Assembly (NCBI RefSeq): GCF_024521635.1
Contig: NW_026250442.1
Span: 1 to 64,000 of the forward strand
DNA from: Tricharina praecox
Lineage: Eukaryota
Length of the DNA: 64,000 nt
Direction of reading: 5' to 3'
This document shows, piece after piece, positions 2,814-61,929 of the stretch (position 1 is the stretch's first letter; each line of letters opens with the position of its first letter). The notes beneath the pieces were generated by a model. It did no database searches, was not told where the DNA came from, and saw nothing but the letters and a program-made list of their open reading frames with translations. A program made the position numbers and the translations under genes.

Positions 2814-3084
2814 CCGGGTGTTGGATAGGTTGGGATGGGATGGAGATTGGCGCCACTTCGTTTTTTTTCTTCTTTTTTCTTCTTTTTTTCTTCTTTTTTT
2901 GTTTCTGCTTTTCTTGACCTTTCTGTCGTGTTTTCTGATTCTTTCGTTATGGATACCTTGCTTCATATGCTTACTTTTTCATCTGATCTGATCTGATTCA
3001 CTTTTCTCTCTCGAGTCTGAGGAAAACAGTCAACAGTCAAAACGTCAACACTTCAACAGTCGTCAAATCGACAAATCGTTCTGA

Positions 3085-3361
3085 CACTTCTGGCACTTCT
3101 GGCACTTCTGGCACTTCTGGCACTTCTGGCACTTCTGGCACTTCTGGCACTTCTGGCACTTCTGGCACTTCTGGCACTTCTAGCACTTCTGGCACTTCTG
3201 GCACTTCTGGCACTTCTGGCACTTCTGGCACTTCTGGCACTTCTGGCACTTCTGGCACTTCTGGCACTTCTGGCACTTCTGGCACTTCTAGCACTTCTGG
3301 CACTTCTGGCACTTCTGGCACTTCTGGCACTTCTGGCACTTCTGGCACTTCTGGCACTTCT
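3085..3361. repeat. 9-bp minisatellite (CACTTCTGG)n, about 30 copies
   Basis: Nearly perfect tandem array; variant CACTTCTAG units with the A at 3182 and 3290. Confidence 0.97.
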
Positions 3362-3546
3362 ACTCTACATACGGTACTCCTCACTCACTGTGTATCTACC
3401 TCCACCAAGAGTAGCTGTGGATATATCCCCCTCCCCTGCAATGGGTGGTGAGCCGGGGTAACCACATATTCATCTTTTCTTCTTGCACTGCCTCACTCGT
3501 TTAACTTTAGAGTCTTAGAGTCGGTACATAACGACAACTCTAAGTA

Positions 3547-14677: not shown

Positions 14678-14805
14678 TTTCGCAGGCCGGGTGGGGGATG
14701 TGCTGTGGCCGAGCGGAAGAATTGAGGTAGGATCTTTGGTTTGGAGAAGGCGGTCACGCAGCAACAGCTCGAAGTTCACGAAACTACCCTGGGAACTGCT
14801 TTGGG

Positions 14806-15612
14806 TTACGTGTTGTCTTGACGAACCCTGGCGGGGCCGCGAATGACTTGCATGCTGGCGCTAGCGAGTCTCCGAGCCGCGAGAGCATGGTATGTCACTC
14901 GGCGAGCCAGCCTGGGTGTTAAGCTTGAGCTTGAGCTTGAGCTTGACCCACGAGTGAGGTTGGTATTGGGTGGATAAACTCCGCAAGAAAGTCCTCTAGA
15001 AATAGCTTGATATAAATGGATAGCTATTACCTCCAGGCCACATCGATCCAGGTCTTCCACTGGCATGCTAGGGCCAACAGTCAGGCTTGTAGCTGCGGTT
15101 GGTGTCGGAATAGAGGGATTGAAAAGGGTCCAGTGGGCACCTATGTACTCGGTGAAAAGGACCGAATGGATTGCATGAGCAGCCAGGTCGTATACACAGA
15201 GCAGGACTCCCGTGGACCACCAAGCAGAGGGACGGGAGTTGACGGGGAAGTCTAGGTATTGGAATCCTATGGATCTCCCCGGTGCAAGATGTGAAGTATC
15301 CAACGCAATTCGAACTCGACCCACCCAACGGCGAGTACTAGGAAACATCCGTGTGGTGACCACACGGTGTGTGGTCATTAGGCCAGCGCCACTTAATGTA
15401 AAGTCATAAGTATGGCAGGTTCTGCAATACGCGGTATCATCGCTAGAGTGAGCTGGAGCAGGTACAGTAGGTTCAATCTGTAGATCTAGCGGCATCGTAA
15501 CTTCTGCGGCATCATTCGAAATACGATCTTGAAACAGAGGCTGAGTATCTGCTTCCACGCCTTGTAGTGTTCTGACTCTTCGTCGTTGCCGTGGCAGTCG
15601 TTGAACTTCCAT
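14806..15612 (-). CDS. Orphan ORF, 268 aa, unknown function
   Basis: Long non-repetitive ORF in lower-GC DNA, preceded by a CTAAT..TTTAG acceptor-like signal; no recognisable domain. Confidence 0.35.
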   Translation of the reverse strand: MEVQRLPRQRRRVRTLQGVEADTQPLFQDRISNDAAEVTMPLDLQIEPTVPAPAHSSDDTAYCRTCHTYDFTLSGAGLMTTHRVVTTRMFPSTRRWVGRVRIALDTSHLAPGRSIGFQYLDFPVNSRPSAWWSTGVLLCVYDLAAHAIHSVLFTEYIGAHWTLFNPSIPTPTAATSLTVGPSMPVEDLDRCGLEVIAIHLYQAISRGLSCGVYPPNTNLTRGSSSSSSSSLTPRLARRVTYHALAARRLASASMQVIRGPARVRQDNT

Positions 15613-16222
15613 CTAAAGAACAGTATTAGGGCCCGTTTGGATGGCCTCAGTTTTCAGTTCCAGTTTTAGAGCGAAATTCAGTTCCCCGCCGGGACATCGA
15701 ATACTGCCCAGTTTCAGTTTCCGGAGAACTGTGAGGTGAACAGAGTGTTGGGCAGTTCTCAGATTACTCAGCCATAAGTCTAAATAATAGGCTTCACCAC
15801 AACTTTAATAGTGGACACATTGTGGCCCCGCTTTTTTGTCTTCCCCGTAAACCGTAAAGGGAGTTGAAGTTAAAATGCGATACTGAGTGGCGGTAAAGAA
15901 ATGAATAAATTCCATTCTATTAGAGTCCACGGAGATCTACAAATCTAGCAGTGTAACGGCAGCGCAGTCTCTCCGCAGTATCGTCGCTAAAGCTCCTCCA
16001 CGGCTCTGCTCCAAAATATTAGGGCTGGGCAGTCGCTTCGCTCCAAAATCCGACGGTCGGAAACTTAGGGTTGAGCCACGGAAATCGCCACACCACTGCC
16101 CTTTATAGGAATAGATACGGGTTAACCCTATCGACCCCGGGTAATACATCCACTGCCCTCCCTCCCATCTACTTCAACCCCCCCACGCCTTCCCCCCCCT
16201 CACCACGACCAACACGACAACC

Positions 16223-17113
16223 ATGGCGACCAACCCGGCCATGGCCCCTCCTCCGACGACGACCAAGCCCGCGAAGACGACGATGCGGCACGCCGGCGAC
16301 TACAAGCGGCGGCTCCCGTTCTCTCGTCGCCTGCGGCACCACATGCGGAACACCGCGAACCTGACCGGCGAGCTCGTCCCCTTCGTTATGGAGAAAGCGT
16401 CCTTCTCCGCTTTGCCCAACGTTGGGCGCACAGGTTTGATCGGGGTTCGGCGCACGCTCCCATTCCATGAGTTTATTGACCGCAACTTTAGGGGCATGAT
16501 GGAAGACGTGCACGGTGCGGGGGCGGCGGCGGAGCGCCGCGGCCTCGTCATCCGCATCGGCAAAACGCTCGACGCTATCCCCCTCGACAGCTTGGCCGGC
16601 GATACTCACACCGTCGAACAGGTCTGGATGACTTTTAAGGACGTGGATCAGGCGTGCTACATCGTCTACTACGAACAGGGAGGAGGAGATGGCTGGAAGA
16701 AATTCTTCAAGATCATGCCAGACGAGGATATGACTGGAATGGTTAACACGCCCCGTCAGGCTCGTCGCATCGAGAGACAGGCGCGCATTCAAGTTCAGGC
16801 CCGCGCCGCTCGGCGTCAGGCTCTTCAAGCTGAGCTCCAGGCCCGCGCTGTGCGCCGTCACGCTCGTCAGGTTGCGATCCAGGGCGTCGCTCAGCGTCAG
16901 GCTCAAGTTCAGGCTCGTCAGCTTAAGACCCAGGCCCAGGTTAAAGTTCAACCCCTGGCCCAGGTTAAAGTTCAGACCCAGGTTCCAGTTCCAGTTCAGG
17001 CTCGGGTTCATGTTCTGCTCCAAGCCCGCGCCGCTCGGCGTGAGGCTAAAGTTCAGGCCCGCGCCGCTCGGTGTCAGACCCGGCAGGACTTGAAGGCGTA
17101 TATACTGCGTTAA
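16223..17113 (+). CDS. Divergent Atg8/LC3-like ubiquitin-fold protein with a basic QARAARR-repeat C-terminal extension
   Basis: YKRRLPFSRRL..R..LVPFVMEKASFSALP aligns with Atg8 FKSEYPFEKRK..R..RIPVICEKAEKSDIP; FKDVDQACYIVY aligns with [12 protein letters not shown]. Intronless, with a good CAACCATGG start context. Confidence 0.7.
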   Translation: MATNPAMAPPPTTTKPAKTTMRHAGDYKRRLPFSRRLRHHMRNTANLTGELVPFVMEKASFSALPNVGRTGLIGVRRTLPFHEFIDRNFRGMMEDVHGAGAAAERRGLVIRIGKTLDAIPLDSLAGDTHTVEQVWMTFKDVDQACYIVYYEQGGGDGWKKFFKIMPDEDMTGMVNTPRQARRIERQARIQVQARAARRQALQAELQARAVRRHARQVAIQGVAQRQAQVQARQLKTQAQVKVQPLAQVKVQTQVPVPVQARVHVLLQARAARREAKVQARAARCQTRQDLKAYILR

Positions 17114-17603
17114 TACAATATACCTAGTCGGCAAGGACACAACGACGGATAACCTCTACTGGACTGGACTGGCATGTCGGCTTCTTCGTAGCTTTTTTCT
17201 AGAAAAAAAAGGACGAAAAAAGGGTTCACTTTCACTTTCACTATTTCTAGTTCGTCTATTTCTGGTTCGTCTGTTTTGCTCTATTTGCTCCGTGATTAGA
17301 CCGGTTCCCGGTAATATGTAACACCACCCAGTGCACGCACCAGCACGCCCTCTAGGCTCCAGGCTCCGAGAACCGGAGACGAAAGTCGGTGGCGGATCGG
17401 TACATAGACAATCGCTTATATACACGCAAAAGGTTAACCAATCCCACCACATCATCCGTAATCCGAGTGCTTTCCATGGTCCACGCGCTGCAGGTAGGTA
17501 GCTCAAGTTCATCGAGCAAAGCTCGAACAGGTATTATCAATTACGTTTATACCGTCTACATCGTCATCATGACCATCACCATCATCTTCCCATCACCTTC
17601 CAA

Positions 17604-19913
17604 TCACCTTCCCCTTCCCCTACCCTTCTCCCTCCCCGCATCCACATCCATCGTCCCACCAGCACTCTTCCACACGCCCTCCTCGACCCTAACGGGGACC
17701 TTCCCGCCCCTGAGCGCGGTATCGATGATCCACAGGCCGACCACCCACTCCTCCCTGCTGAGCCGTCCCTTCGCGCCTCGATCCACAAGCTGCCACACCT
17801 CGGCGAGCACACGGTTCTCGAGGCGACTTCGCTGCCACAGTTCACGGACGACATAGTTCTCGATATACTTGTACCCCGGGGAGTTAGATGCGAACAAGCC
17901 CTCGTAGCGGCGTCTAGCAGCCGCGGGGATGGTGCGTGCCCACGTGTGGTTGAGCACTTCGTTGTGGCGGTGGCGGCGCGGCGGAGGCTTCGGTGGTGGG
18001 GGGGTGGGACTACGCGGTGGGCGCAGGGTCCGCGGGAGGGCGGGGAGGGAGCGGCGCCGTTGCGGTGAAGGTTTGTGCGGCGGGACGGGGGCGGGTGGTT
18101 TACGTGGCCCTGGGGGGATGGAGCGCGAGGGCGCAAGGGAGGCGGCGATTGTGGCGGCAGGGCGGGAAGGGATGGGTGGTGGGATGGTGGGGAGGGAGCG
18201 ACGACGACGGGGGAGGGGGGCCGGTGGTTTGCGGGTGCTGGTCGGGAGGAAGGGTTTTTTCTGGGGTGGTGGGGGTGGTCGGAGGACGACGGTTGTTGCG
18301 ATGGAGGCGCCAGAGGCGGAGGTTTCGGAGGTTGCCCGCGCAAACGAAGGCGGGTCAATGATCTTCCGTCGCGGCGGAGGAGTTTGGCCGTCCGACTTGC
18401 GTGGAGACGAAATGTGGGCCCTTGCTGCCGCCGTGGGCGCGCTGGAGCCTGAAGACGCTGAGGCCGTTGATGATGTGCGCGCGGGTAGGGTGGGTCGTAA
18501 GTTACTGGTGGAGGGAAGTTTCCGTGGTGGTGGGCGCGCTTTCCGCGGTAGTGGAGGCATCGGAGCCCCTCCTCCTCCGGTATTCTGCGGCCTCGAAGCG
18601 TGAGCTATCGTTGCCGCCGTCAAGGCGCTGGGCCGTCCCGAGTTGTGCGACACCACCGATTCGGTGTGTCTTACTGGGGAAGCGTCTCCTGTCGCCTTCT
18701 TCCTCGTCGGGGGAGGCAGCGGTGATCTTCCGCCCGTCGTTTGTGGAGACGGGAGTGCCGATGTGGGCCTCGATGATGCATGGGCTACCGTTGCTGCCGC
18801 CAGTGCGTCGTTCCGCGCTCCTACACCCGAGATTCCCGAGTCCAGTGATTCCGTCCGCGCGATCGGCGGCTTCTTTGGCGGCGGAGGCTTGGACTTGATC
18901 CGTTCCAAGTCATGCGAAGCGGCCGATTCCGTCCGTGCGATGGGAGACATGTCCACTTTCTTCTTCTTCGGTGGTAGAGGCGCCGGACTCGACACACCCG
19001 CCCCCACCGTGGCTGTCACGGGGGTTGTGCGCGCGGGGTGGGATGGTCGCACGTTGGTGGTTGTCGTGGGGGGTTTACGCCGCGGTCCACGAGCCTTCCG
19101 TGGTAGTGGAGGCATCGGAGCTCCCCTTGCACCCCCACCGGTAGTCTGCGGGCTCGAAGCATGGGTCCTCGTTGCCGCCGACTCCCTGGACTCCGTCCTT
19201 GCGATTGTAGGTCGGTCCAGATCTACCCTCTTCCACGGCGCCGGTCCTCCCGCTCCACCGGTAGTCCGCGGACTCGAAGCATGCGCGCGGGACGCCGCCG
19301 TTATCGCGCTGGAACTCTCCGAGTTCCTCGAAGCCACCGAGACCGAGGACGGTTTGGGCGCAACCGGGGGTTTCGGGCTCATGCTCGGGCTCGGGCTCTG
19401 ACCAGCACTGGTTGCGACGATTGCGGCAGCCAGGGACGGGCTCTTTGCGGTAGTCTGCTGTTCGAACATCGATTTGAGAGAGGAGATGTCGTCGAGCGAT
19501 GAAGAGTCGACTTTTTCCGGACTGCCGGGGCGCTTCCGCGCATGACTCGTCGTTGTCGAGGGTGATAGGGGGGTTTCGTCCGCTTCTCCGAATAGCTTCA
19601 GGCGCTGCCGCACCGCGAGCGCTTCTCCTTCCCCTGCCATGGCCGATGAAGAGGAGCCAGAACGAGAGTGTCGCGATGACCTGGTGTTGGAGCGCGATGT
19701 CCGCTGTTGTTGGCGTTGGTGTTGTTGTTGCTGTTGTTGTGGTGGTGGTGGTTGTCTCCTATCCCCCCGTTCGCGTATAGCTGGTGCTGGTGGTGGTGCA
19801 GGTGCTGGTTGCTTTTTGGCAAAGCTCAGCACTGCCGCGCGGAGAGCTGCAGAGTCCGGGGCCGGCGATGCCGTTGCATTTGCGGCTGGCTTTGGGGCCG
19901 CCCGCTTGTACAT
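17604..19913 (-). CDS. IRS4/TAX4-like protein: long Pro/Ser-rich region plus C-terminal EH domain
   Basis: RRRYEGLFASN..NYVVRELWQRSRL..LAEVWQLVDRGAKGRLSREEWVVGLWIIDTALRGGKVPVRVEEGVW. Confidence 0.85.
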   Translation of the reverse strand: MYKRAAPKPAANATASPAPDSAALRAAVLSFAKKQPAPAPPPAPAIRERGDRRQPPPPQQQQQQHQRQQQRTSRSNTRSSRHSRSGSSSSAMAGEGEALAVRQRLKLFGEADETPLSPSTTTSHARKRPGSPEKVDSSSLDDISSLKSMFEQQTTAKSPSLAAAIVATSAGQSPSPSMSPKPPVAPKPSSVSVASRNSESSSAITAASRAHASSPRTTGGAGGPAPWKRVDLDRPTIARTESRESAATRTHASSPQTTGGGARGAPMPPLPRKARGPRRKPPTTTTNVRPSHPARTTPVTATVGAGVSSPAPLPPKKKKVDMSPIARTESAASHDLERIKSKPPPPKKPPIARTESLDSGISGVGARNDALAAATVAHASSRPTSALPSPQTTGGRSPLPPPTRKKATGDASPVRHTESVVSHNSGRPSALTAATIAHASRPQNTGGGGAPMPPLPRKARPPPRKLPSTSNLRPTLPARTSSTASASSGSSAPTAAARAHISSPRKSDGQTPPPRRKIIDPPSFARATSETSASGASIATTVVLRPPPPPQKKPFLPTSTRKPPAPLPRRRRSLPTIPPPIPSRPAATIAASLAPSRSIPPGPRKPPAPVPPHKPSPQRRRSLPALPRTLRPPRSPTPPPPKPPPRRHRHNEVLNHTWARTIPAAARRRYEGLFASNSPGYKYIENYVVRELWQRSRLENRVLAEVWQLVDRGAKGRLSREEWVVGLWIIDTALRGGKVPVRVEEGVWKSAGGTMDVDAGREKGRGRGR

Positions 19914-20735: not shown

Positions 20736-23700
20736 CTACACACCAAACCTCTCCTCATCCAGCAGCGTCCTCTCCCCGATCGACTCGCTCACCCACTCCC
20801 TCCCCACCACTCTCGGGGCCTTCCCGCTCCACTTTGCAATCTCGCTTCTGATCTCTCGTAACTTTTCGGGCGATGTCTTAGCGTCCACCACCACGTGTGT
20901 GATCCCCCTCCCGGCGGCGGCGGGGAGTGTTCCGGCAACGACCTTCCCGCCCGCGAACAGGATCGGTGTCGCCGCGAGCGTGTAGCTGCTGGATTGTGGT
21001 GGGGCGGCGATGTACACTACGCAGGAGGTGAAGAGCCAGCCGGGCAGTTCTGCGTCGTCGGAGTCCTGGGTTGATAGGGAGGCGTGGAAGGAGGCGTGGA
21101 GGGCGGGGTCGGTGTCGGTGTCGGTGGAAGCCGGCATACCCTCGAGCAGCGCGCGCAGCTCGGCCGCGTCGATGTCGCGGGCGTAGCTATCGCCGTATTT
21201 GTCGACGCGGTTGGCGGCTTTGTGTGCGGTGAGCGGGGTGGCGAAGAATAGGTGGCGCGGCTCGAGGGGGAGGAGGTGGTGCTCGCCCGTTCTCTCGTGC
21301 TGCGCGATGCAGTCGAAGAGCCACTGCGGGTGGATGATATCGTGGGTGCCCCGCTTCTTCAGCGCCGAGATCTTGACGGTGTTGCGGTCGCCGATGACGT
21401 GGATGGAAGGGTGGTTCTCATTCTGCAGGAAGTGGCCGCCGTGGGATTTGATGAGTGCTTCGATCTCGGGCTTGGAGACTTTGTTGCGCCGCGAGGAGGA
21501 GTCGGTCAGGACATAGAATGTGTGGTTGGCGAAGAGCGTGTCCGGGATGGCCGCGAAGCGCGGGACCGAGTGCTCGTCCGCGCCTGCGACAGTGAACTCC
21601 TTCTTTACGCGCTTGTTGCGCTGGCGGCGCCGCTCGACGTCGAGCTTCTTTGTTTGCGCGGAGTGCAGGGCGTCGGCCTGAAGCTTCATGAAGCCCTGGA
21701 TGCTGAGGGCGGTTTTCCAGTCGCGATCTGGGCGCAGCCGCTTGAACCGCGGGAAGCGCAGTGTCTGGTTCATGCGGAACTGGTCCGTGGCTGCGATGGA
21801 GGCGGCCTTGACCTCGACTACGAATGAGTTCTCCGGGTGGATCCACATGTGCGGCTTCTCGAAGTGGCGGTCGCCACCTGCTAGCTCGAGCCAGTCCGGC
21901 GGTGGGTGCGCATTCCACTTCCGCCACAGCCCGTCGGTGTTGTGCGCAATCGTCGCATAGTCGTTCGCCGTGAAGCCCCCGCCCACTTTGAAGAAGCTGT
22001 AGAACTTCATCGGGTTCGCCCCGGGCGGCAGCGCGTTGCCGTCGACGCGCAGCGCACATAGGTACGACGAGAGGATGCTCCCCCGCTTGCCGGTGCCCCA
22101 GTACCCGCCGACCACGAGGCAGTCCAGGGACTCGCCGTATTCGGTCATGTACTCGGGCTTAACCTTGACCCAGTCGTCGTTGCGGTCGTTGAGGCGGTAG
22201 ACTGAGCGCGGGTTCTTGATCACGAGGCCTTCGAAGGCACTGGCGATGACCTGCCGGAGCTCGGCCTCGATCTCCTCCGTGGTTGTGGCTGAGTTGTACT
22301 GGTGGATTTCGATGCGGCCGGGCTCCGAGGTCATAACGCCGGTCAAAGCTTTCCGGCGGTCTTCGAGCGAGTAGTCGAGGAGACTCTGGCCGTTCAGGAA
22401 GAGGATGTCAAAGACGCGGAATAACGGACGGTGCTGCATCCCCTCCGGATTGTTGCTCGTTTCGATCGCCGCGGTTTTCAGTGTTCCGAAGCCGACGATG
22501 CAGTCCACCGTTGGATCCCAGGTGATCATCTCGCCGTCAAGGATGATGCTGCCGACACGCTTGTCGAATATCCCTTCGGCGAAGCGCGAGACACTGCCGT
22601 TCTTGAAGCTCGAGCCGTAGAGATGCGTATACTCCTTCGCCTTCCTGCTCCACCATCTGAACTCGCCATTATCAAAATGCATCTGCATGCGCTCGCCATC
22701 CAGTTTCTCCTCGATCCAGAACTCTTGTCCGCCCATAGCCTTGATCACCGTAGCCAGCGACTTCTTCTGGAACTGTGCCAGCTGCGGTTGAAAGCACGAC
22801 ATGAGAGTAACGCCCTTCTCGTCCGCGCCCACGCGGAAGTCGGGATCGTACAGTTCCCAGCAGACGCGGCGCAGAGAGGATGAGACATTGAACATGGTAT
22901 CGGCATCGGGGTGCCAGGCGTCAAAGAAGGTCTTCTCTGTGGCTCCGACTTTCATCTGCTTCAGGATTATGCGGATCAGCCACATGAGCTCTTCTGCGCA
23001 CATGTTGTTGTAGAATTCCTCCATGATCGGTAGTTGGTTTTCACTACGGCCGGTCAGTCGTCTTCGCTGGATAAGGCCAACCAAGAGATATGCACTTACT
23101 CTCCGGTTACTTGTGAGAGGCGATCCAGCATCTCATTGACCTGCGCAATCGTCAGGGGCCCTGGCGTGGTCCGCATCGGACGCTTCTTGATGATCTCGTA
23201 GCATCGCAGCGCAAAATCACCAGCGCTCCTGGACCATGCACCAGGCAACTTCCAGTGGAGCAAGCCGTATCCATCGTCACTGTCCTTCCTAATCTTCATC
23301 ACCTTGACGAGGAGCTTTCCTATGCGCTGCTCCTTCATGTGATACCTTTCCGCACAAAATCAGCATCATTCCCACCCCCCCTTCACACACCAATCCCTCA
23401 GGCTCCAGCACTCACACATTCCTCTCACGATCCTTATCGCACAAGATCAACCTGAACGCGGGGAAGATATCCGGGCCGACCTCGCTCCTCCACCTCTTGA
23501 CGAAAGTCTCGATGATATTCCGCCTAACCTCATGCGGCTTCAACTCGCGGTTCCCTCGCAGTCCCACCCCGGTCCGCTTCGTCTTGTTCTGCAGCAGCGG
23601 CACGAATAGCTTCGTGTATAAAACATGGAACGGGAACGTCGCGTGCGTGTTAAGTGGTCGGTGAGGGTATTTCGCCTCGATCTCGGCTTCGGTGAGGGAT

Positions 23701-54567: not shown

Positions 54568-57500
54568 CTAAACTGCAGCGTCATGGGTATCAGGGGTTAC
54601 CGGGCCCGCCTCGATCTTGTCACCAGCAGCCCCGATCCTGTCACTAGCAGCCGCAGTCTCGTCACCGGCAGCCCCGGTCTTCTCGGTCTTGTCAACAGCA
54701 GCCTCGGTCTTATCACCAGTGGCGTCGGTCTTGTCAACAGCAGCCTCGGTCTTATCACCAGTGGCGTCGGTCTTGTCGCCGGCAGCGTCGTTCTCGTCAC
54801 CGGCAGCCTCGAACTTCTCGAACTTCTCACTAGCAGTCTCGAACTTCTCACTAGCAGCCTCGGTCTCCTCACTAGCAGCCTCATCAACCCGGATGCTAAC
54901 GGATTCTTCTACTGACAGCTGGTCAGAGTCTAGCTCTTTCGGCAGGGCTTCGTCGTCATCAATTTCCTCTATGGGGACTTCGACGTCCTCTCCGGAGATT
55001 TCGCCTTCTCCGTCGAACTGCTCTGGGGCGTCGTCGTATTCCTCTCCCTGCTCCAGGTCCTCGTCCTCGTCCTCGCTATCACCGCTCACTTCGATGATAT
55101 CACCAGCCTCCGCTTCATCTTCGTCGTCGTCTAGATCCTGAATCTCAACATCGTCGTCATTAACAGGCGATACATCACAGTGGTCTGGCCCCGAGTAATC
55201 CTGTGCGACGGAAGTGCGTCCACGAGTGACATCTACCAGCAGCTCGGGGAAGAGCCAAGGAAACGAGACGAGCGGCAACGTTTCAAGTTCCTTCTTCGAG
55301 AGTGTAGCAACCGACAGGCGAGTGGACTTTGCGCGGGGAGTGGCACGATTGCGATCCTGCTCGATCTTCTCGAGTGTCTCTGCGAGCTCGCGCTGGGTAA
55401 CGACGTACATTGCGACGACCTTCCTCAGCAGCTGCGTAGTGCGGTTGGTACAGCTGTGGATGATCTGTTTACGGAAGCGGTCCTTGAGCGAGAATGAGAT
55501 CTCGCCGATTTCCTCGTGGAACTTGTAGTCGTTGCCGTTGCTGTGTAACATGACGAAGGTGCTCCATACTTCGAACTCGGTTTGGATCTCATGCTGCGCC
55601 ATGATTCTGCGCATCGCTCGGTCATATTCGTTTTTGAAGTGCTTGGCTTCGTCGAGTTCGGCATCGGTCAGGTTGAACGCCGTCATGAGATACTCGTTCG
55701 GCGGTAGATCGTAGCAAGGCTTGAACTCGACGCGCTCGACCATGTCGTAGAGCTGGCCGAGGATCTTGGTGCTGTGATAGGAGCTTTCCTCGACGGGCTT
55801 CTCAAAGAAGTGAGGCCACTGTCGGATTCGGAACTTACTGCCCATCACCGCCTTGATACCCGTCTTGGGGTAGTCTACAGCATCGGAATGGAGAGTCGCA
55901 AGGTCAAGGCCTGGAAGCACCAAAGTTAGTCGGCAGATACGCAACATGAAAGGACGGAAACAAACGTACAGATTGTACTCTTCACTCCCTGGTCCGACTT
56001 GTCCGCCCACGCAAGATGCGCATTGGCGATCGCTCCCAATCGGTCATTCTTCATGTAATTGACGAAGAAACCGGTGATGTCTTGGATAGTGACGTCGCGA
56101 TCTAGTGGGGACGGGACATGTGGCTTGTACGAGGCTGGCGGTTCATTGATCAAGATGCCGGGAGCGGTGAGATCCTTATCCCAGATCACCACGTAATCAT
56201 CGCCATCAAGATCGCCACCGGACAACATGCTGGGGATGTCACGATCCCCAGTCTGCGGGAAAACAACGACATCTATGAGGTGGTGTAGCTCCGGAACATC
56301 GACTGCCTCGACGAGCCGTACATCTCCGGGATGCAAGCTTGGGTTGCGAGCGACGATGACCGGGCCGGTGATGATCCTGGGACGGCAAGTCGCGAGGTCG
56401 GTGACCTGACAAAAGACCTCCGGGAGGACATCTTCGGTATCGTGGTAGTACCCCTTCAGGATCCCCGTTTCGTCGACTACACCCAGCAGGAAGGCGCCGT
56501 CGTCGATGGTAATCTTTGCCTTTTCCTTGAGGTACTTGATCGTCCAGGCGCGCCAGAGGCACATCAGCGAGATTACGAATGGCTCCATCGATGTCATGAG
56601 CCCACCACGGACCATATTGGCGATTTCCAAAGTCATATGATTCGGATCGATGTGTTTGGTGAGGAGTTCTAAAGCCTTCGCCGGATTGCTTATGGCAGTT
56701 GAATAGTCGCTGAGTATCTGCATCAACCTCTCCCGGAAGAATTCGTCGGGGACACCTAATGTCGACATGACTTGGATCAACTGCCGGTTCAGCGACGCCG
56801 AGGCAAACTGAGAACAGCGGATAATCTCGAGGTCCTTGTGGGGCGACCAAAATTTCATCTGACTCTCACGCAGCTGGATCTCGCAGTTCGTGAGTTCGGG
56901 GTTCACCACAAGCACACCCTTGTGACCTCCTAGACGGAACTGGAAGCAAGAAGACCGGTAGTTTAGTGGAGTCGTGCGTCGGGAGCCGATCAACTGTGCC
57001 GTTATTAGGACGGCTAGAATCGGGGACATCTTGCCGACACCATCCGAGAAGCAGTAGCCATGCCGCTCGATATCCGGTATCTTGGAGGGCTCCACTTTGA
57101 ATTGCTTGAACGCTTTCGTGGTCGAGAAACATTGACCGAGGCGTGAAGCGTTTTTCGCAATGATTCGGATATTGGAGAAATGACCCATCCAGTCACGGAT
57201 ATCGGAAGCCTTTAAAAGTATTAGTAACGCACAGTATCAAAAACCCAAGAAATACCTTACAGTGAGATCATCAGCACGGGCGAAAAAGTACGCTCCATGC
57301 TCCCGCAACTGCGAATTACCAAACGCAAGGAACTCATATCGCCTATCGCCGAGGACGATACCGTTGTTTAGGGTTCTGAAAACACGGCTGAACAGCTCAT
57401 TGGAAACGACCTTGTCGGTGAACCTGATTCTGCCGGACGACTTTTCATCTGTGAAGGACACACGAATGAATCGATCCGCATACTTCTCATAGTACCGAAC

Positions 57501-59885
57501 GACCCTGTTTGAGATCTCGACGGACGGACTGTGGAACTGGATCCCCGTAGGAGAGACTGTCGCTCGCCGCATGTACACACAAAACTCTGGAATCGCCTTC
57601 ATCAAGTCCGCCTTTTTGCTACGGGGGATGCTGAACACCTCCATCGGATTAAAGAAACGGATTTTCCTTTCTTGAACCAATTCGAGTAGAGATATGGCGT
57701 CATGCTGGGACATATTCTCCAACCTGTCGATGAACGGAGGTGCGAGGTTATACTCGTTGAGGAGTCCATGAGAAATGCACACTTCCAGCTGATATCGTAC
57801 TGGGAACTCAAGATGACTCTTCAGTAGCTCACTGTTGCTAGTGGTGGCAGGAGGATCGAGGTAACTCCAGATGGGGTTGAGTGTAGATTTGTCCTTATTA
57901 ACACGGAATGTCTCCAGCGGCTTTTTGCGCACATTGAAGTCTTGCAAGGCCTCCATCATGAGCTTGAAGGTGGTGAGCAATTTTTCATCCTGCAAGTCAA
58001 ACGACAATCGGTACGTTGTCCACCGGCCTATCACAGAAGCTTAGCATGCGTGACGAGTAGCTGTGGAAGTGGAACCAAAGGGAAAATATACCAATATCAA
58101 TTATGGGGTTTTTATGTCGTAAGCTTACCGGGCGCTCCTGTCTGGCCCTCATGTCGTACTCGATATCTGTCTGACGCATCCATGCATCGTATATGCTCCA
58201 GCGAGTAAGGCTGGCTTCATTCATACTCTTGGTGAGGTCTTGAAGTAACCTTGAGATCTTTGGGGGATCCGGCAATGGAATTATGAAGGTCCGCTTAGAG
58301 CTACTCTCATCCTCATCGACAGGAATGAAGATGTCTTGTAGTTGCGTGAATGGTATCTCGATCATGTACTTTTCGACACGATCGTAGTCTGTTTCTACCG
58401 TTATACCCTCGCTGGTTTTTGCGTCGGTCCGATCGATCTCTAGTCTGAAGGTCATTTCTATTCTCTTCTTCTGCAGGTTGACTTCCCAGCTGATATTAGC
58501 ATCCGGCTTCGTCTTGTACATAGGCATGAACTCTTCCGGCTGGAACATGAACCCAAACTCGATCGACTCCACAGGAAACATCTGGCGGACATGTGTTAGC
58601 TGCTGTCCATCCGCCAACAACAACGGAATACGGAGATGGATGTATTTACTAGCTTCATAGGGTAATATTTCGATGGATTGACACGACTCTGAACGAAAAA
58701 GCCTCCACGCGGCTTCTCAAGCCTGACCTGGACGAGTCCTGCCCCGAAATCTAACTTCATGTTTTCCCAGAAAGGCTCATAGACCTTGCGAAATCGCACT
58801 TTGGCAGTTCCTTGCTTGTTTCCGCTTATATCGACATCTAGAAAGATCGAATCGACATCTCCGAAATCCTTAACGGTGATATAGATATGCTTGATCGTTA
58901 CATGCTTCGCTAAATTCGGGCCGATACGAACGTCCACCTCCGGGTATTTCTTCCACTTATCATTCTTCACTAACGGCAGGTGAGTTGGCCGGTACACAAC
59001 GGGCGTCCTCGGACCCGTGTCGCCTGGGCTGTTACCCCCTGTTTCTAGCGGTAAAGACATTGGCCATGGAGACGTTGGCGGTGGGAAAGCCGGCAGCGGA
59101 GGGGCTGTGTTCTGTGAGGAATCGGCGATGGGCAGAGATGGACCAGGAGAAGGACGTAAGCCCGGACCAGTTGGGAGGGCGAAGGAAGGACCAGCCACGA
59201 AAGAGAGATCCGGGCCAGCATGGGTGCCAATTCCAACGTAAGGGGTTCGGGAAGGTGGGAGATTTCCATTTGAAGGGAGATCTATTGAAGCAGCCCCAAC
59301 CGGCAAGGCGTTCGCTTGGCGGGTATTGTCTGGAGATCGCAAATGTGGAGGTGTAGGTACTGGTCGCGAAGGGCCAGAAGGAATCTCTTGCACCTGTGCT
59401 GTGACCGGAGATCGCAGATTTGGAGGTGCAGGTACTGGTCGCGAAGGACCATAAGGAATCTCTTGCGCCTGTGCTGTGACCGGAGATCGCATATTTGAAG
59501 GTGCAGGTACTGGTCGCGAAGGGCCATAAGGAATCTCTTGCACCTGTGCTGTCACCGGACGGGAAGCGGAGCTAATAGATGGTTCGGGCGCCCGTTGTTT
59601 GCCACGTAAAGGAGTCTTGCGAGGAGGAGGAGGAGGAGGAGCGGCGGCAAGGTTCTTTAGGATTGGGACCTGATGAGCGAACTGTTGACTCTGACCTTGA
59701 CGTCGAGCCTGCTGCTGCTGCTGCTGCTTCTGCGGGGTGAGACCTTCTTTCTTGACATCTGTCTCCTTTGCTTTCTGAGCAGGAGCCGGAGCAGCGCGCG
59801 GAGCCGGAGCATTCACATTGTTTCCAGCGCTAGCACGAGGTTCCAGCGCGGGCCAATCTTCCGAATACCCGGCCGAGTCCGGCAT
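54568..59885 (-). CDS. Cellular RNA-dependent RNA polymerase (RNAi; probably the SAD-1/Rdp1-type clade)
   Basis: FSDGVGKMS, FQFRLGGHKGVL, ARNPSLHPGDVR, catalytic SGGDLDGDDY, LHSDAVDYPKTG, N-terminal DIGRWTTY. Introns 58649-58582, 58091-58028, 57260-57210, 55969-55911, plus a probable 5'UTR intron at ~60002-59953. Confidence 0.96.
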
Positions 59886-60074
59886 TCCTGCGTGGGCTGC
59901 TATCTACGAGTCTTGGTTGTCGGCACAAGTGATATTTCGGCTCGAAATTGTCTGTACGACTGTTAGCTCCTCTTATACAGAACGTCAGGGTTGTTTTCAT
60001 ACCTAATATAGTCGTCTGTCACTGGAAGGCTGCGGATTTAACCTGAGACGGAAAGGTGGATGATTGAGAACAAA

Positions 60075-60320
60075 GAGGAGGGATGTGATGATGGCAGGCT
60101 AGGGTGTGGCTGAGACAACGAGTAGGAGGATGTGATGATGGCAGGATAGGGTGTGGCTGAGACAACGAGTAGGAGGATGTGATGATGGCAGGCTAGGGTG
60201 TGGCTGATAGAACGAGTAGGAGGGATGTGATGATGATGGCAGTGGTTGTGGCGGTGAAAATGAGTAGGAGGGAACGAGTAGGAGGGCTGTGATGATGGAA
60301 GGCTAGGTTGTAGCGGTGAA
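60075..60320. repeat. 47-bp tandem repeat upstream of the RdRP gene
   Basis: Unit GATGTGATGATGGCAGGCTAGGGTGTGGCTGAGACAACGAGTAGGAG starts at 60082, 60129 and 60176, followed by two degenerate copies. Confidence 0.9.
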
Positions 60321-61929
60321 TGAATATGGAGTGAGGAAAGAAACGCCGAGAATTGATAGAGGGGTGCGGAATGAAATGGTGAGAATTGATAGGGGGAAGG
60401 TGAAATGGTCGATGGACTGAGTGGTATCCCAGGTTGGTTGGTTGGCTAGTTTGGTGCTGCCGTCCAAAGGAACCTCATGGAAATATCTCCCCGCGTTGTA
60501 GATGCTGCTTTGTTGCCGTGTAACACCAAGGGGTCCAGCTCAAAAGAACCTTTTTCCCTAAGGAAAGCGATCGCGCGTCGGGCTTGTACTAATTTTGCGC
60601 GTCTACGGCCGCAGGGCTGACGTCGATCACGAAAACCGCTTAATCTGGATATCTAGCGGGGCGGTGACCGACGCGGGGTTGACGACGCGGGGTTGAGGTC
60701 TGGCGGACTTCGCAGTGTCAAAGTCGAAGTCGACGTCTAAGCTGGGTTCTTCTGTCTCGTCTTTGTTCTCTGCCGATGGATTATAGAGCTGGATCCGAGT
60801 TTGCTCCACCCACGCGCAAGGTGATGCAAAGCTGTGCGGTGATCTGGTGATGAACGTCCGCAGCTGACCAAGGAAATCAGCGACGAATGATCATGACTGG
60901 GTGATAGCCATGTAGCCGTCCTGCATCGGGCCTGCCGGACTCGAACTCTAGAGTAGGTGTTGGAAGTTTGAGCTGCTGCCTGGGGAGCACACTTGGACAC
61001 TACATATGACGCGTGTAGGTAAAGCCGGCAAGCACTCAAGCACATCAGGTATCTACATCTGTATAGTCAAGGGGGGGTAAAAAAATGGTAGTGCGCCCAT
61101 ATCTTTAAGAAAATGCTAGTGGTATCGTATTAGTACGGTCAAAATACGTGTTTTTTATGCCCTGATACGATATCAATATTCGTCCAGCGGGAAACAACGG
61201 TTGATATAAGTACATGTATCCAAGTTCCTCGAAGAAGTTTTTTTGTTTGCTTGTTTCACCGCATTGCATTCGACCATTTCCGACCATGGCCGGTTCAGTC
61301 GTCTATACATACTATCCTATCTCCTCCGGATCCTACATAGTCCCCCCCTTCCCGCTGCGCGGCACTTGCTGGTGGTGTGAACGAGCCGGCGTCGAGCAGT
61401 CTCACGGACATCTCCACGGATTTCCTGGAATTGAGGACGGAAGTAGGCACTGTCGGGATCAGGAGGAAGATACGAAGTGGAAAGTCCAGGTTTGGAATCC
61501 GAGCTGTTTGCGGAAGGAAAGTGTACCGTAGGCAAGCAAGCTATATTTGACTTTCTCACGAGCACGCTGGATTAGTTTGCCTGCGGAATCCCGACCGGCT
61601 CACGAATATCGTTGAGCAAATTGCTCCCGCCAGGCCATCTCGAACCAAAAATTCTTCACATGAGGCCCCTTACGGTTTGGCCCATTCGAGACCAGATTGA
61701 AGAGAACAGTAATGGTATTCCCCGCCGCCAAAACAAACCCATTAAAGATACAGATGCAGACCGAAATCGAGTACATACCAAAAAAAAAACCAAGGAAAAA
61801 GCAGATGAGGTAACAAACAGCAGGCCCACGAAAGACACTCCAAACACTCCTGAGCAGAAATATACCCTCGGCCAGCCAAACCGGAAAGGAAGAGGAAAAG
61901 GAAACTGAAATGAAGAAATGAAAGAGAAA

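Follow-up and report, generated by a model that had tools for sequence, protein, structure and literature searches.

A putative, highly diverged Atg8-like domain with a basic repeat tail in a lineage-restricted gene of Tricharina praecox

In general accounts, ascomycetes possess a single ATG8 of high conservation, the strand-2 K-Y-L-V-P motif of Atg8 serves the docking of LC3-interacting region (LIR) ligands, and fusions of ubiquitin with ribosomal proteins exist as precursors. Here we analyzed a stretch of 64,000 nt from Tricharina praecox (contig NW_026250442.1, positions 1 to 64,000 of the forward strand; called the window from here on), in which an uninterrupted open reading frame (ORF) of 296 codons plus stop lies at 16223..17113 on the plus strand. 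A preliminary description, made from the letters of the DNA, had proposed that this ORF encodes a hidden, highly divergent Atg8/LC3 paralogue fused to a polycationic repeat tail. With a probability of roughly 0.55, we consider it a real, lineage-restricted gene for a diverged, probably non-lipidated Atg8-fold protein with a young basic tail: residues 21-157 are under purifying selection and resemble Atg8 when profile is compared with profile, and the repeat-derived tail that follows is species-specific.

For yeast a single Atg8 isoform is stated in the excerpt of PMC11607642, and no paper among the matches listed in searches of the literature on Tricharina praecox, Atg8 paralogs and filamentous fungi dealt with a second Atg8-like gene in Pezizomycetes. 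The ATG8A/B/C families of kinetoplastids offer a precedent of diverged Atg8-like proteins (excerpts of PMC3561585 and PMC10903960), and the apicomplexan Atg8 has a non-autophagic role (excerpt of PMC9973341). These protist proteins are like the present case in being precedents for an Atg8 fold that diverged in sequence and took other roles; they are still recognised by Atg8 or Atg12 models, whereas the protein described here is fungal, goes unrecognised and is found in two sources. Another comparison is offered by FUBI-eS30, a ubiquitin-like/ribosomal-protein fusion precursor (excerpt of PMC8354635). Fusions of this type share with the T. praecox protein the succession of an N-terminal ubiquitin-like domain, glycines and a strongly basic polypeptide; in our case, however, the tail is repeat-derived, matches no family and is absent from the homologue, and the G-G-G is found only in T. 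praecox.

If our reading is true, this would be a second, selection-constrained gene with an Atg8 fold. It would mean that in fungi the fold can depart from the conjugation machinery of autophagy and change until it is no longer recognisable, and that a known fold can lie concealed in an orphan gene, to be recovered only when profiles are compared with profiles and structures are predicted. The two homologues would also represent a natural experiment, in which the same domain is extended by a short acidic tail in one protein and by a long basic tail of repeats in its counterpart, and could show how low-complexity extensions join ubiquitin-like domains; the finding is limited by the narrow distribution of the gene.

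A conserved domain under purifying selection

The identical 296-aa protein is recorded in NCBI and UniRef, and a variant differing in one amino acid (P0003) is annotated as a hypothetical protein of T. praecox. The ORF and the strings quoted from it in the preliminary description are all present in the translation: the three blocks likened to Atg8 (residues 27-42, 51-67 and 130-149), the segment RTGLIGV, the Gly cluster EQGGGDG (residues 151-157) and a basic tail of 139 aa with QARAARRQA/QVKVQ repeats.

HMMER searches against 1.84 billion representative proteins returned 13 proteins at E<=0.001, with no Atg8 among them: the query itself, a T. praecox gene model (P0002), a metagenome protein (P0004), nine bacterial FG-GAP_2 proteins and one repeat protein, the last two kinds being matched only through summed short repeats. 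The sole true relative is P0004, a protein of 149 aa without the tail, which shares 59-62 % identity with residues 21-156 of the ORF product and whose first residue corresponds to Met21; the metagenome contig L001 encodes it, with one amino acid change, as a single open frame. In word-index searches for further relatives, residues 1-175 retrieved only the query and P0002 among 355 candidates and P0004 retrieved only itself among 50, while a metagenome scan gave one relative among 171 pattern matches; the 64,000 nt of the window hold no second copy of the ORF.

Over 126 aligned codons the domain in the window and its counterpart in L001 have a nonsynonymous rate (dN) of 0.307 and a synonymous rate (dS) of 1.381, the latter near saturation, by the NG86 method (dN/dS 0.22; LWL85 gives 0.21), and their differences are distributed 40/25/64 over the three codon positions. 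This ratio, together with the codon-position pattern, marks the domain as constrained coding sequence in the sense frame. The domain is under purifying selection, and the ratio differs from the value near 1 that, for the preliminary description, would have indicated a decaying retrocopy. Conservation in the pair peaks in strand 1 with its loop (15/18), strand 2 (9/12) and strand 5 (9/10) of the predicted fold.

Another ORF, of 280 aa, runs antisense to the gene (16169-17011, minus strand) and overlaps nearly all of it. We hold it very improbable that the sense ORF is non-functional as read, be it a decaying or spurious frame or a shadow of the antisense ORF as the real gene. Over its 280 codons the antisense frame is uninterrupted, and in the tail it outscores the sense frame in codon usage (0.18 versus -0.06), a point that does count against our reading; its product, however, belongs to no Pfam family and is not recorded as a protein, and in the domain it is the sense frame that has the best codon score and a gene-like G+C content at third codon positions (GC3). 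Moreover, the constraint at sense codon positions argues against the antisense ORF, most differences from L001 falling on third positions of the sense frame, the first positions of the antisense frame, and the dN/dS of the domain is that of a maintained frame. As for decay, the copy represented by P0002 is disrupted in frame: it reads the DNA of the window as a mosaic of frames 0, +1 and +2, with at least nine frame switches and with nt 16428-16618 skipped. Each of its frame segments, however, agrees with the window letter for letter, a sign of indel errors or of a very recent copy and not of decay.

Similarity of the domain to Atg8

The orphan sequences were aligned (alignment A3) and compared by hhalign with an alignment of 40 Atg8 sequences (A4). 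The latter were taken from 96 distinct giant-virus ORFs that had been retrieved from a viral collection with a short degenerate motif pattern; all 40 match PF02991, and the invariance from K48 to F60 is forced by the retrieval pattern. As an observation in its own right, the retrieval shows that giant-virus metagenome contigs (L002-L081) encode Atg8 homologues of 105-150 aa, at least 96 of them distinct, and most of these proteins end exactly at F-G.

The comparison of A3 with A4 gave one collinear alignment of 107 columns with a score of 30.7 (P 1.1e-4, probability 56.3 %), which spans positions 5-121 of the query and 4-112 of the template, from helix 1 to strand 5, and reproduces the three blocks of the preliminary description. 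Taken alone, P0004 aligns with A4 with a score of 26.6 over 76 columns and the domain of the window with a score of 21.5 over 109 columns (P 0.0049). When the columns of A3 were shuffled 200 times, the score of the joint profile was never reached (mean 12.4, standard deviation 2.6, maximum 21.0, at most 58 columns). Likewise, 0 of 100 residue shuffles of the window domain (maximum 19.8) and 0 of 65 natural unrelated segments of 149 aa (maximum 19.0, at most 32 columns) reached 21.5, and 0 of 100 residue shuffles of P0004 (maximum 19.5) reached 26.6; the reversed query scored 14.5 and the reversed template 14.0, over 11 columns each. Remote homology to Atg8 over the whole domain is detectable at the level of profile versus profile, with moderate strength and with Atg8 as the sole family profile compared. 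This result with its controls is the strongest evidence that the resemblance is real.

In the collinear alignment from helix 1 to the last strand and in the similar length of the N-terminal extension before strand 1, the orphan proteins are like Atg8/LC3/GABARAP. They are unlike them in lying below every Pfam and HMMER threshold, in the replacement of the strand-2 and C-terminal motifs, in the loss of most of the basic R-K-R of helix 3, and in carrying two insertions (8 and 10 residues) and long species-specific tails.

Predicted structures of the homologue were also compared with known folds. The model of P0004 in the Atlas has a predicted local distance difference test (pLDDT) of 0.69 and a predicted template modelling score (pTM) of 0.68; its nearest structures are Atg8 clusters, with template modelling (TM) scores of 0.55 and 0.59 over 113-119 residues within 1-128, followed by Atg12 with 0.49. 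Its named feature neighbours in the Atlas are Atg12, Atg8 and Ufm1 clusters with scores of 0.76-0.78, which lie below the informative level, and the Atg12 and Atg8 clusters (0.77-0.78) come mostly from Euglenozoa, a lead only. When P0004 was modelled with AlphaFold 2 (AF2) from three sequences, Atg8/LC3/GABARAP chains made up 24 of the 44 matches listed by Foldseek; at low confidence, the predicted fold neighbours of the homologue are members of the Atg8 family. VIA, which is independent of Foldseek, gave for the same model chains that are ubiquitin-like, RA, UBX, FERM or PB1 by title in 42 of the 50 rows listed (Z 3.2-4.6), with human and yeast Atg12 among them. A second look with VIA showed Atg8-family chains in 16 of the 50 rows listed (Z 3.3-3.7, residues 38-120 of the model against 18-112 of the chain); over both VIA comparisons, ubiquitin-like folds span Z 3.2-4.7. 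The geometry of the P0004 model thus weakly suggests a beta-grasp, Atg8 not being singled out in it. Atg12 and Ufm1 are in fact equal or slightly better in geometry (UFM1 Z 3.6-4.2, Atg12 Z 3.5), besides being Atlas neighbours; unlike the orphan, they are without the N-terminal helical extension of ~30 residues that it aligns to the Atg8 helices.

A number of results weigh against an Atg8 origin and speak for the alternative that the gene is real and conserved and its domain is unrelated to Atg8, an orphan alpha/beta domain whose likeness would be convergent or due to modelling bias; we judge this alternative rather unlikely. Ordinary sequence searches are blank: at E<=10 neither the 296-aa ORF nor the domain alone nor P0004 matches PF02991 in Pfam, the family model named for this purpose in the preliminary description, none of them matches any other ubiquitin-like Pfam family, and phmmer and profile searches of all PDB sequences gave no Atg8-family chain. 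The AF2 model of the T. praecox domain, made from a two-sequence alignment, has a pLDDT of 41.6, yields no Foldseek row at E<=0.001 and in a wide VIA search retrieves a miscellany that is not beta-grasp (best 9bk5_A, Z 5.0), and in the Atlas the best feature score of this domain is 0.78, to unnamed clusters; structure prediction on the window domain itself, also put forward in the preliminary description, ended in a low-confidence model without a beta-grasp match. The AF2 model of P0004 is of low confidence as well (pLDDT 46.1, residues 57-119 at 50-71), none of its Foldseek rows reaches E 0.001, neither AF2 model has a VIA Z above 5.0, and in geometry UFM1, RA or MCU domains are no worse a match than Atg8.

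The profile comparison has its own weak sides in this respect. The hhalign probability is only 56 % with the joint profile and 7 % with the window protein alone, the template was built from motif-picked giant-virus sequences, Atg8 was the sole profile compared, such that another fold family could score equally, and P28, K46, V51 and F60 are the only A4-invariant aligned positions matched; the family, moreover, has two known members only. What keeps us from regarding the domain as unrelated is that collinear alignments of 107-109 columns beat the column shuffles, both sets of residue shuffles and the natural segments, and that the neighbours of P0004 are ubiquitin-like or Atg8-like with two different predictors. 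What is supported of the preliminary description is a hidden, highly diverged domain resembling Atg8 that precedes a basic repeat tail, as indicated by hhalign with its controls, by the TM scores in the Atlas and by the Foldseek and VIA rankings of the homologue; Pfam and PDB sequence searches did not bear the resemblance out.

Strand 2, the Gly cluster and the basic tail

Relative to A4, the orphan proteins keep the strand-1 P-x-x-x-E-K, a basic residue at K46, V51, the helix-3 Phe, the helix-4 aromatic residue and the strand-5 D-x-x-x-Y-[IV]-x-Y, and like Atg8 they have a Gly cluster past strand 5. In strand 2, K48, Y49 and P52 are lost and replaced by [RK]-T-G-[LV]-I-G-V-R (R-T-G-L-I-G-V-R in T. 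praecox and K-T-G-V-I-G-V-R in P0004); the hhalign alignment shows RTGLIGV in the place of the K-Y-L-V-P docking segment, just as the preliminary description had read it by eye. D54, T56 and Q59 are lost too, and so are most of the basic residues of helix 3, R65 being kept only in T. praecox and R67 being replaced by F in both proteins.

At the C-terminal end, E112, F115 and G116 are invariant in A4, and the hhalign alignments end before them. Ungapped extension of the alignments lays G155-D156 (G125-D126 in P0004) over F115-G116, with a Gly one position to either side and no aromatic residue; here, as pointed out earlier, the aromatic residue that precedes the Gly is seen to be missing. The E-x-x-F-G of Atg8 is replaced by [QK]-G-x-G-D in the orphan proteins.

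We propose that residues 21-157 would form a very diverged ubiquitin-like fold of the Atg8 kind, predicted as a basic N-terminal helical extension followed by a beta-grasp-like core. The features of sequence by which Atg8 serves as a lipid-conjugated adaptor in autophagy would be gone from the domain, which would stand outside the Atg4/Atg7/Atg3 lipidation route, acting as a soluble, non-lipidated interaction module. Its best-conserved surface, formed by strands 1, 2 and 5, may bind a partner other than the canonical LIR or Atg8-interacting motif (AIM) ligands. The non-lipidated decoy suggested in the preliminary description would be compatible with the lost docking and C-terminal motifs.

The likeness of the two homologues ends right after G-x-G-D, G153, G155 and D156 of the Gly cluster being kept in P0004, and the tails beyond are unrelated in length and charge. 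Such an end of conservation at a cluster that lies within one residue of the Atg8 Gly in the ungapped extension, and that reads G-G-G in T. praecox, would also suit a ubiquitin-like precursor cut by a protease at G-x-G-D, which would expose a C-terminal Gly for conjugation and/or release a basic peptide of 140 aa, with FUBI-eS30 as a precedent (excerpt of PMC8354635). We think this unlikely, given that G-D lies over the aromatic-Gly pair of Atg8, no aromatic residue is present, an Asp is conserved behind the Gly and the homologue has G-L-G-D without a di-Gly; the domain boundary alone explains where conservation ends, and the tail has no known family and an atypical codon usage. A more far-reaching idea, quite unlikely in our view, is an unrecognised family of Atg8-derived modifiers in a narrow Pezizales lineage, in which the protein would be cut at G-x-G-D and the domain conjugated to a non-canonical target, the cut in T. 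praecox also freeing a 140-aa cationic peptide chaperoned by the ubiquitin-like domain.

The stretch 16568-16747 (residues ~116-175) resembles one FG-GAP_2 unit (S-L-A-G-D-T ... A-x-Y-[IV]-x-Y-x-Q-G-G-x-D-x-W), and one might take the C-terminal half of the domain for a single bacterial-type FG-GAP_2 beta-propeller blade. Nine of the 13 proteins found at E<=0.001 are FG-GAP_2 proteins, each matched in 5-6 stretches, and the best BLASTP segment shows 33 % over 67 residues (E 9e-6 in a single comparison). These scores, however, sum near-identical repeats, the Pfam family FG-GAP_2 (PF14312) has no match at E<=10, one blade makes no propeller and only one unit-length stretch is present, its G-D-T and Trp158 are not conserved in P0004, and Atg8 helix 4 and strand 5 align with this very stretch; the blade was rejected as extremely improbable.

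Returning to the diverged Atg8-like domain, we read the tail behind it as a recent, repeat-driven extension, absent from the homologue and outside the conserved function. The region 151-296 contains 30 K+R and 9 D+E among its 146 residues (~21 % K+R), giving a net charge of about +21. No counterpart of the tail was detected in L001 by tblastn at E<=10, and none of the Pfam families, ribosomal ones included, matches it at that threshold. GC3 is 0.58 in the tail, whereas the domain has 0.79 and reference genes have 0.65-0.83, and the sense-frame codon score is -0.06 versus 0.23 in the domain. The tail would have grown in T. praecox by tandem duplication of units of 24-42 nt, and it would probably add unspecific polyanion binding or self-association to the protein. 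TCERG1, the sole PDB match (E 9e-4, bias 20.8), was set aside as a compositional match of the QA repeats.

Downstream of the ORF, a 25-nt match (84 %, E 0.02 in a small search) links positions 17168-17192 of the window with 822-846 of L001, 55 versus 46 nt past the respective stop. If this match is real, the insertion of the tail would have separated the domain from a conserved 3' element.

Gene layout, transcripts and genomic surroundings

The features of the gene are collected in Table 1. As read from the protein sequence, the N-terminus has no hydrophobic stretch resembling a signal peptide. A pro-protein that frees a protamine- or antimicrobial-like Arg-rich peptide, as suggested in the preliminary description, would have to be reconciled with this N-terminus and with a tail that the only homologue lacks and that is just ~21 % K+R.

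Table 1. Features of the T. praecox gene, with positions in the window.
Feature	Position	Strand	Basis
Possible 5' untranslated leader	16162..16222	+	contigs of two runs start at 16162 and 16164 and the first ATG is at 16223; runs only guessed to be RNA
Complete ORF, 296 codons plus stop	16223..17113	+	identical protein in NCBI and UniRef
Pro/Thr/Ala-rich N-terminal extension, residues 1-20	16223..16282	+	absent from homologue; sense-frame codon score 0.48, GC3 0.90
Conserved, putative Atg8-like domain, residues 21-157	16283..16693	+	homologue identity, dN/dS, hhalign with controls, structure leads
RTGLIGV, residues 69-75, at the place of Atg8 strand-2 K-Y-L-V-P	16427..16447	+	KTGVIGV in homologue; 9/12 identical in segment
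Gly/Ala-rich insertion of 10 residues, residues 96-105, after third helix	16508..16537	+	absent from homologue
Gly cluster G153-G154-G155-D156-G157, directly past last strand	16679..16693	+	register from ungapped extension of alignments
Basic Q/A/R/V-rich low-complexity tail, residues 158-296, species-specific	16694..17110	+	no L001 counterpart; composition; codon usage
Imperfect 42-nt tandem repeat, 2.7 copies, 71 % matches	16796..16904	+	encodes QARAARRQA-type units
24-nt tandem repeats, 2.1 copies at 92 % and 2.0 copies at 78 % matches	16929..17015	+	encodes AQVKVQ-type units

None of the runs recorded as RNA contains the locus. Two other runs (X1 and X2), which are RNA only by guess, each gave one ungapped contig with 0 mismatches and without joints, covering 16162-17773 and 16164-18059, respectively; in these runs 14768-15303 and 15974-16107 are uncovered, and neighbouring contigs are more than tenfold apart in depth, a pattern that transcript assemblies would show but that does not count as evidence for them. 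The two contigs fit a putative unspliced message that would start ~60 nt before the first ATG, and the gene had been described as intronless, which agrees with the open frame and with the collinear contigs; as to the possible retroposition suggested with it, the homologue is likewise a single open frame. Transcription, however, rests on the guess that X1 and X2 are RNA, and this also counts against a functional gene of the kind we propose.

The ORF has copies elsewhere, the one-residue variant P0003 on a contig of 19.9 kb and the frame-mosaic copy on a contig of 56 kb, and the DNA ligase IV gene lying 4 kb away (20736-23024, minus strand) is recorded in NCBI under two accessions, each on a different contig of T. 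praecox. These data suggest a segment of several kb that was duplicated or redundantly assembled, not a gene family. A transposon-borne multi-copy family was considered and rejected, the neighbouring ligase IV being doubled as well, P0003 differing in one residue, P0002 being letter-identical and the window holding the ORF once.

The neighbouring genes encode ribophorin I, an EH-domain protein, DNA ligase IV, an IndA/pfkB pair and a Na/H exchanger. The EH-domain gene is convergent with the ORF, and between its 3' end and the stop of the ORF lies a T6-CTAG-A8 palindrome (17193-17210), which may be a 3'-end region shared by both genes. Just upstream of the gene, a stretch of ~110 nt (15626-15735) is covered by many X1 and X2 contigs, with a depth above 500 and unrelated loose ends on both sides; it occurs once in the window, and its coverage suggests a short dispersed element present in many transcripts or loci.

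Farther away, a run of ~50 or more G and a C-rich run ~1.2 kb apart (765-835 and 2066-2113) make up a long imperfect inverted repeat. A tandem array with a 9-nt unit, more than 30 registers and up to 98-99 % identity occupies 3007-3406, and further tandem arrays are found at 54587-54877 (21-nt unit) and at 59327-60333 (75-nt and 47-nt units).

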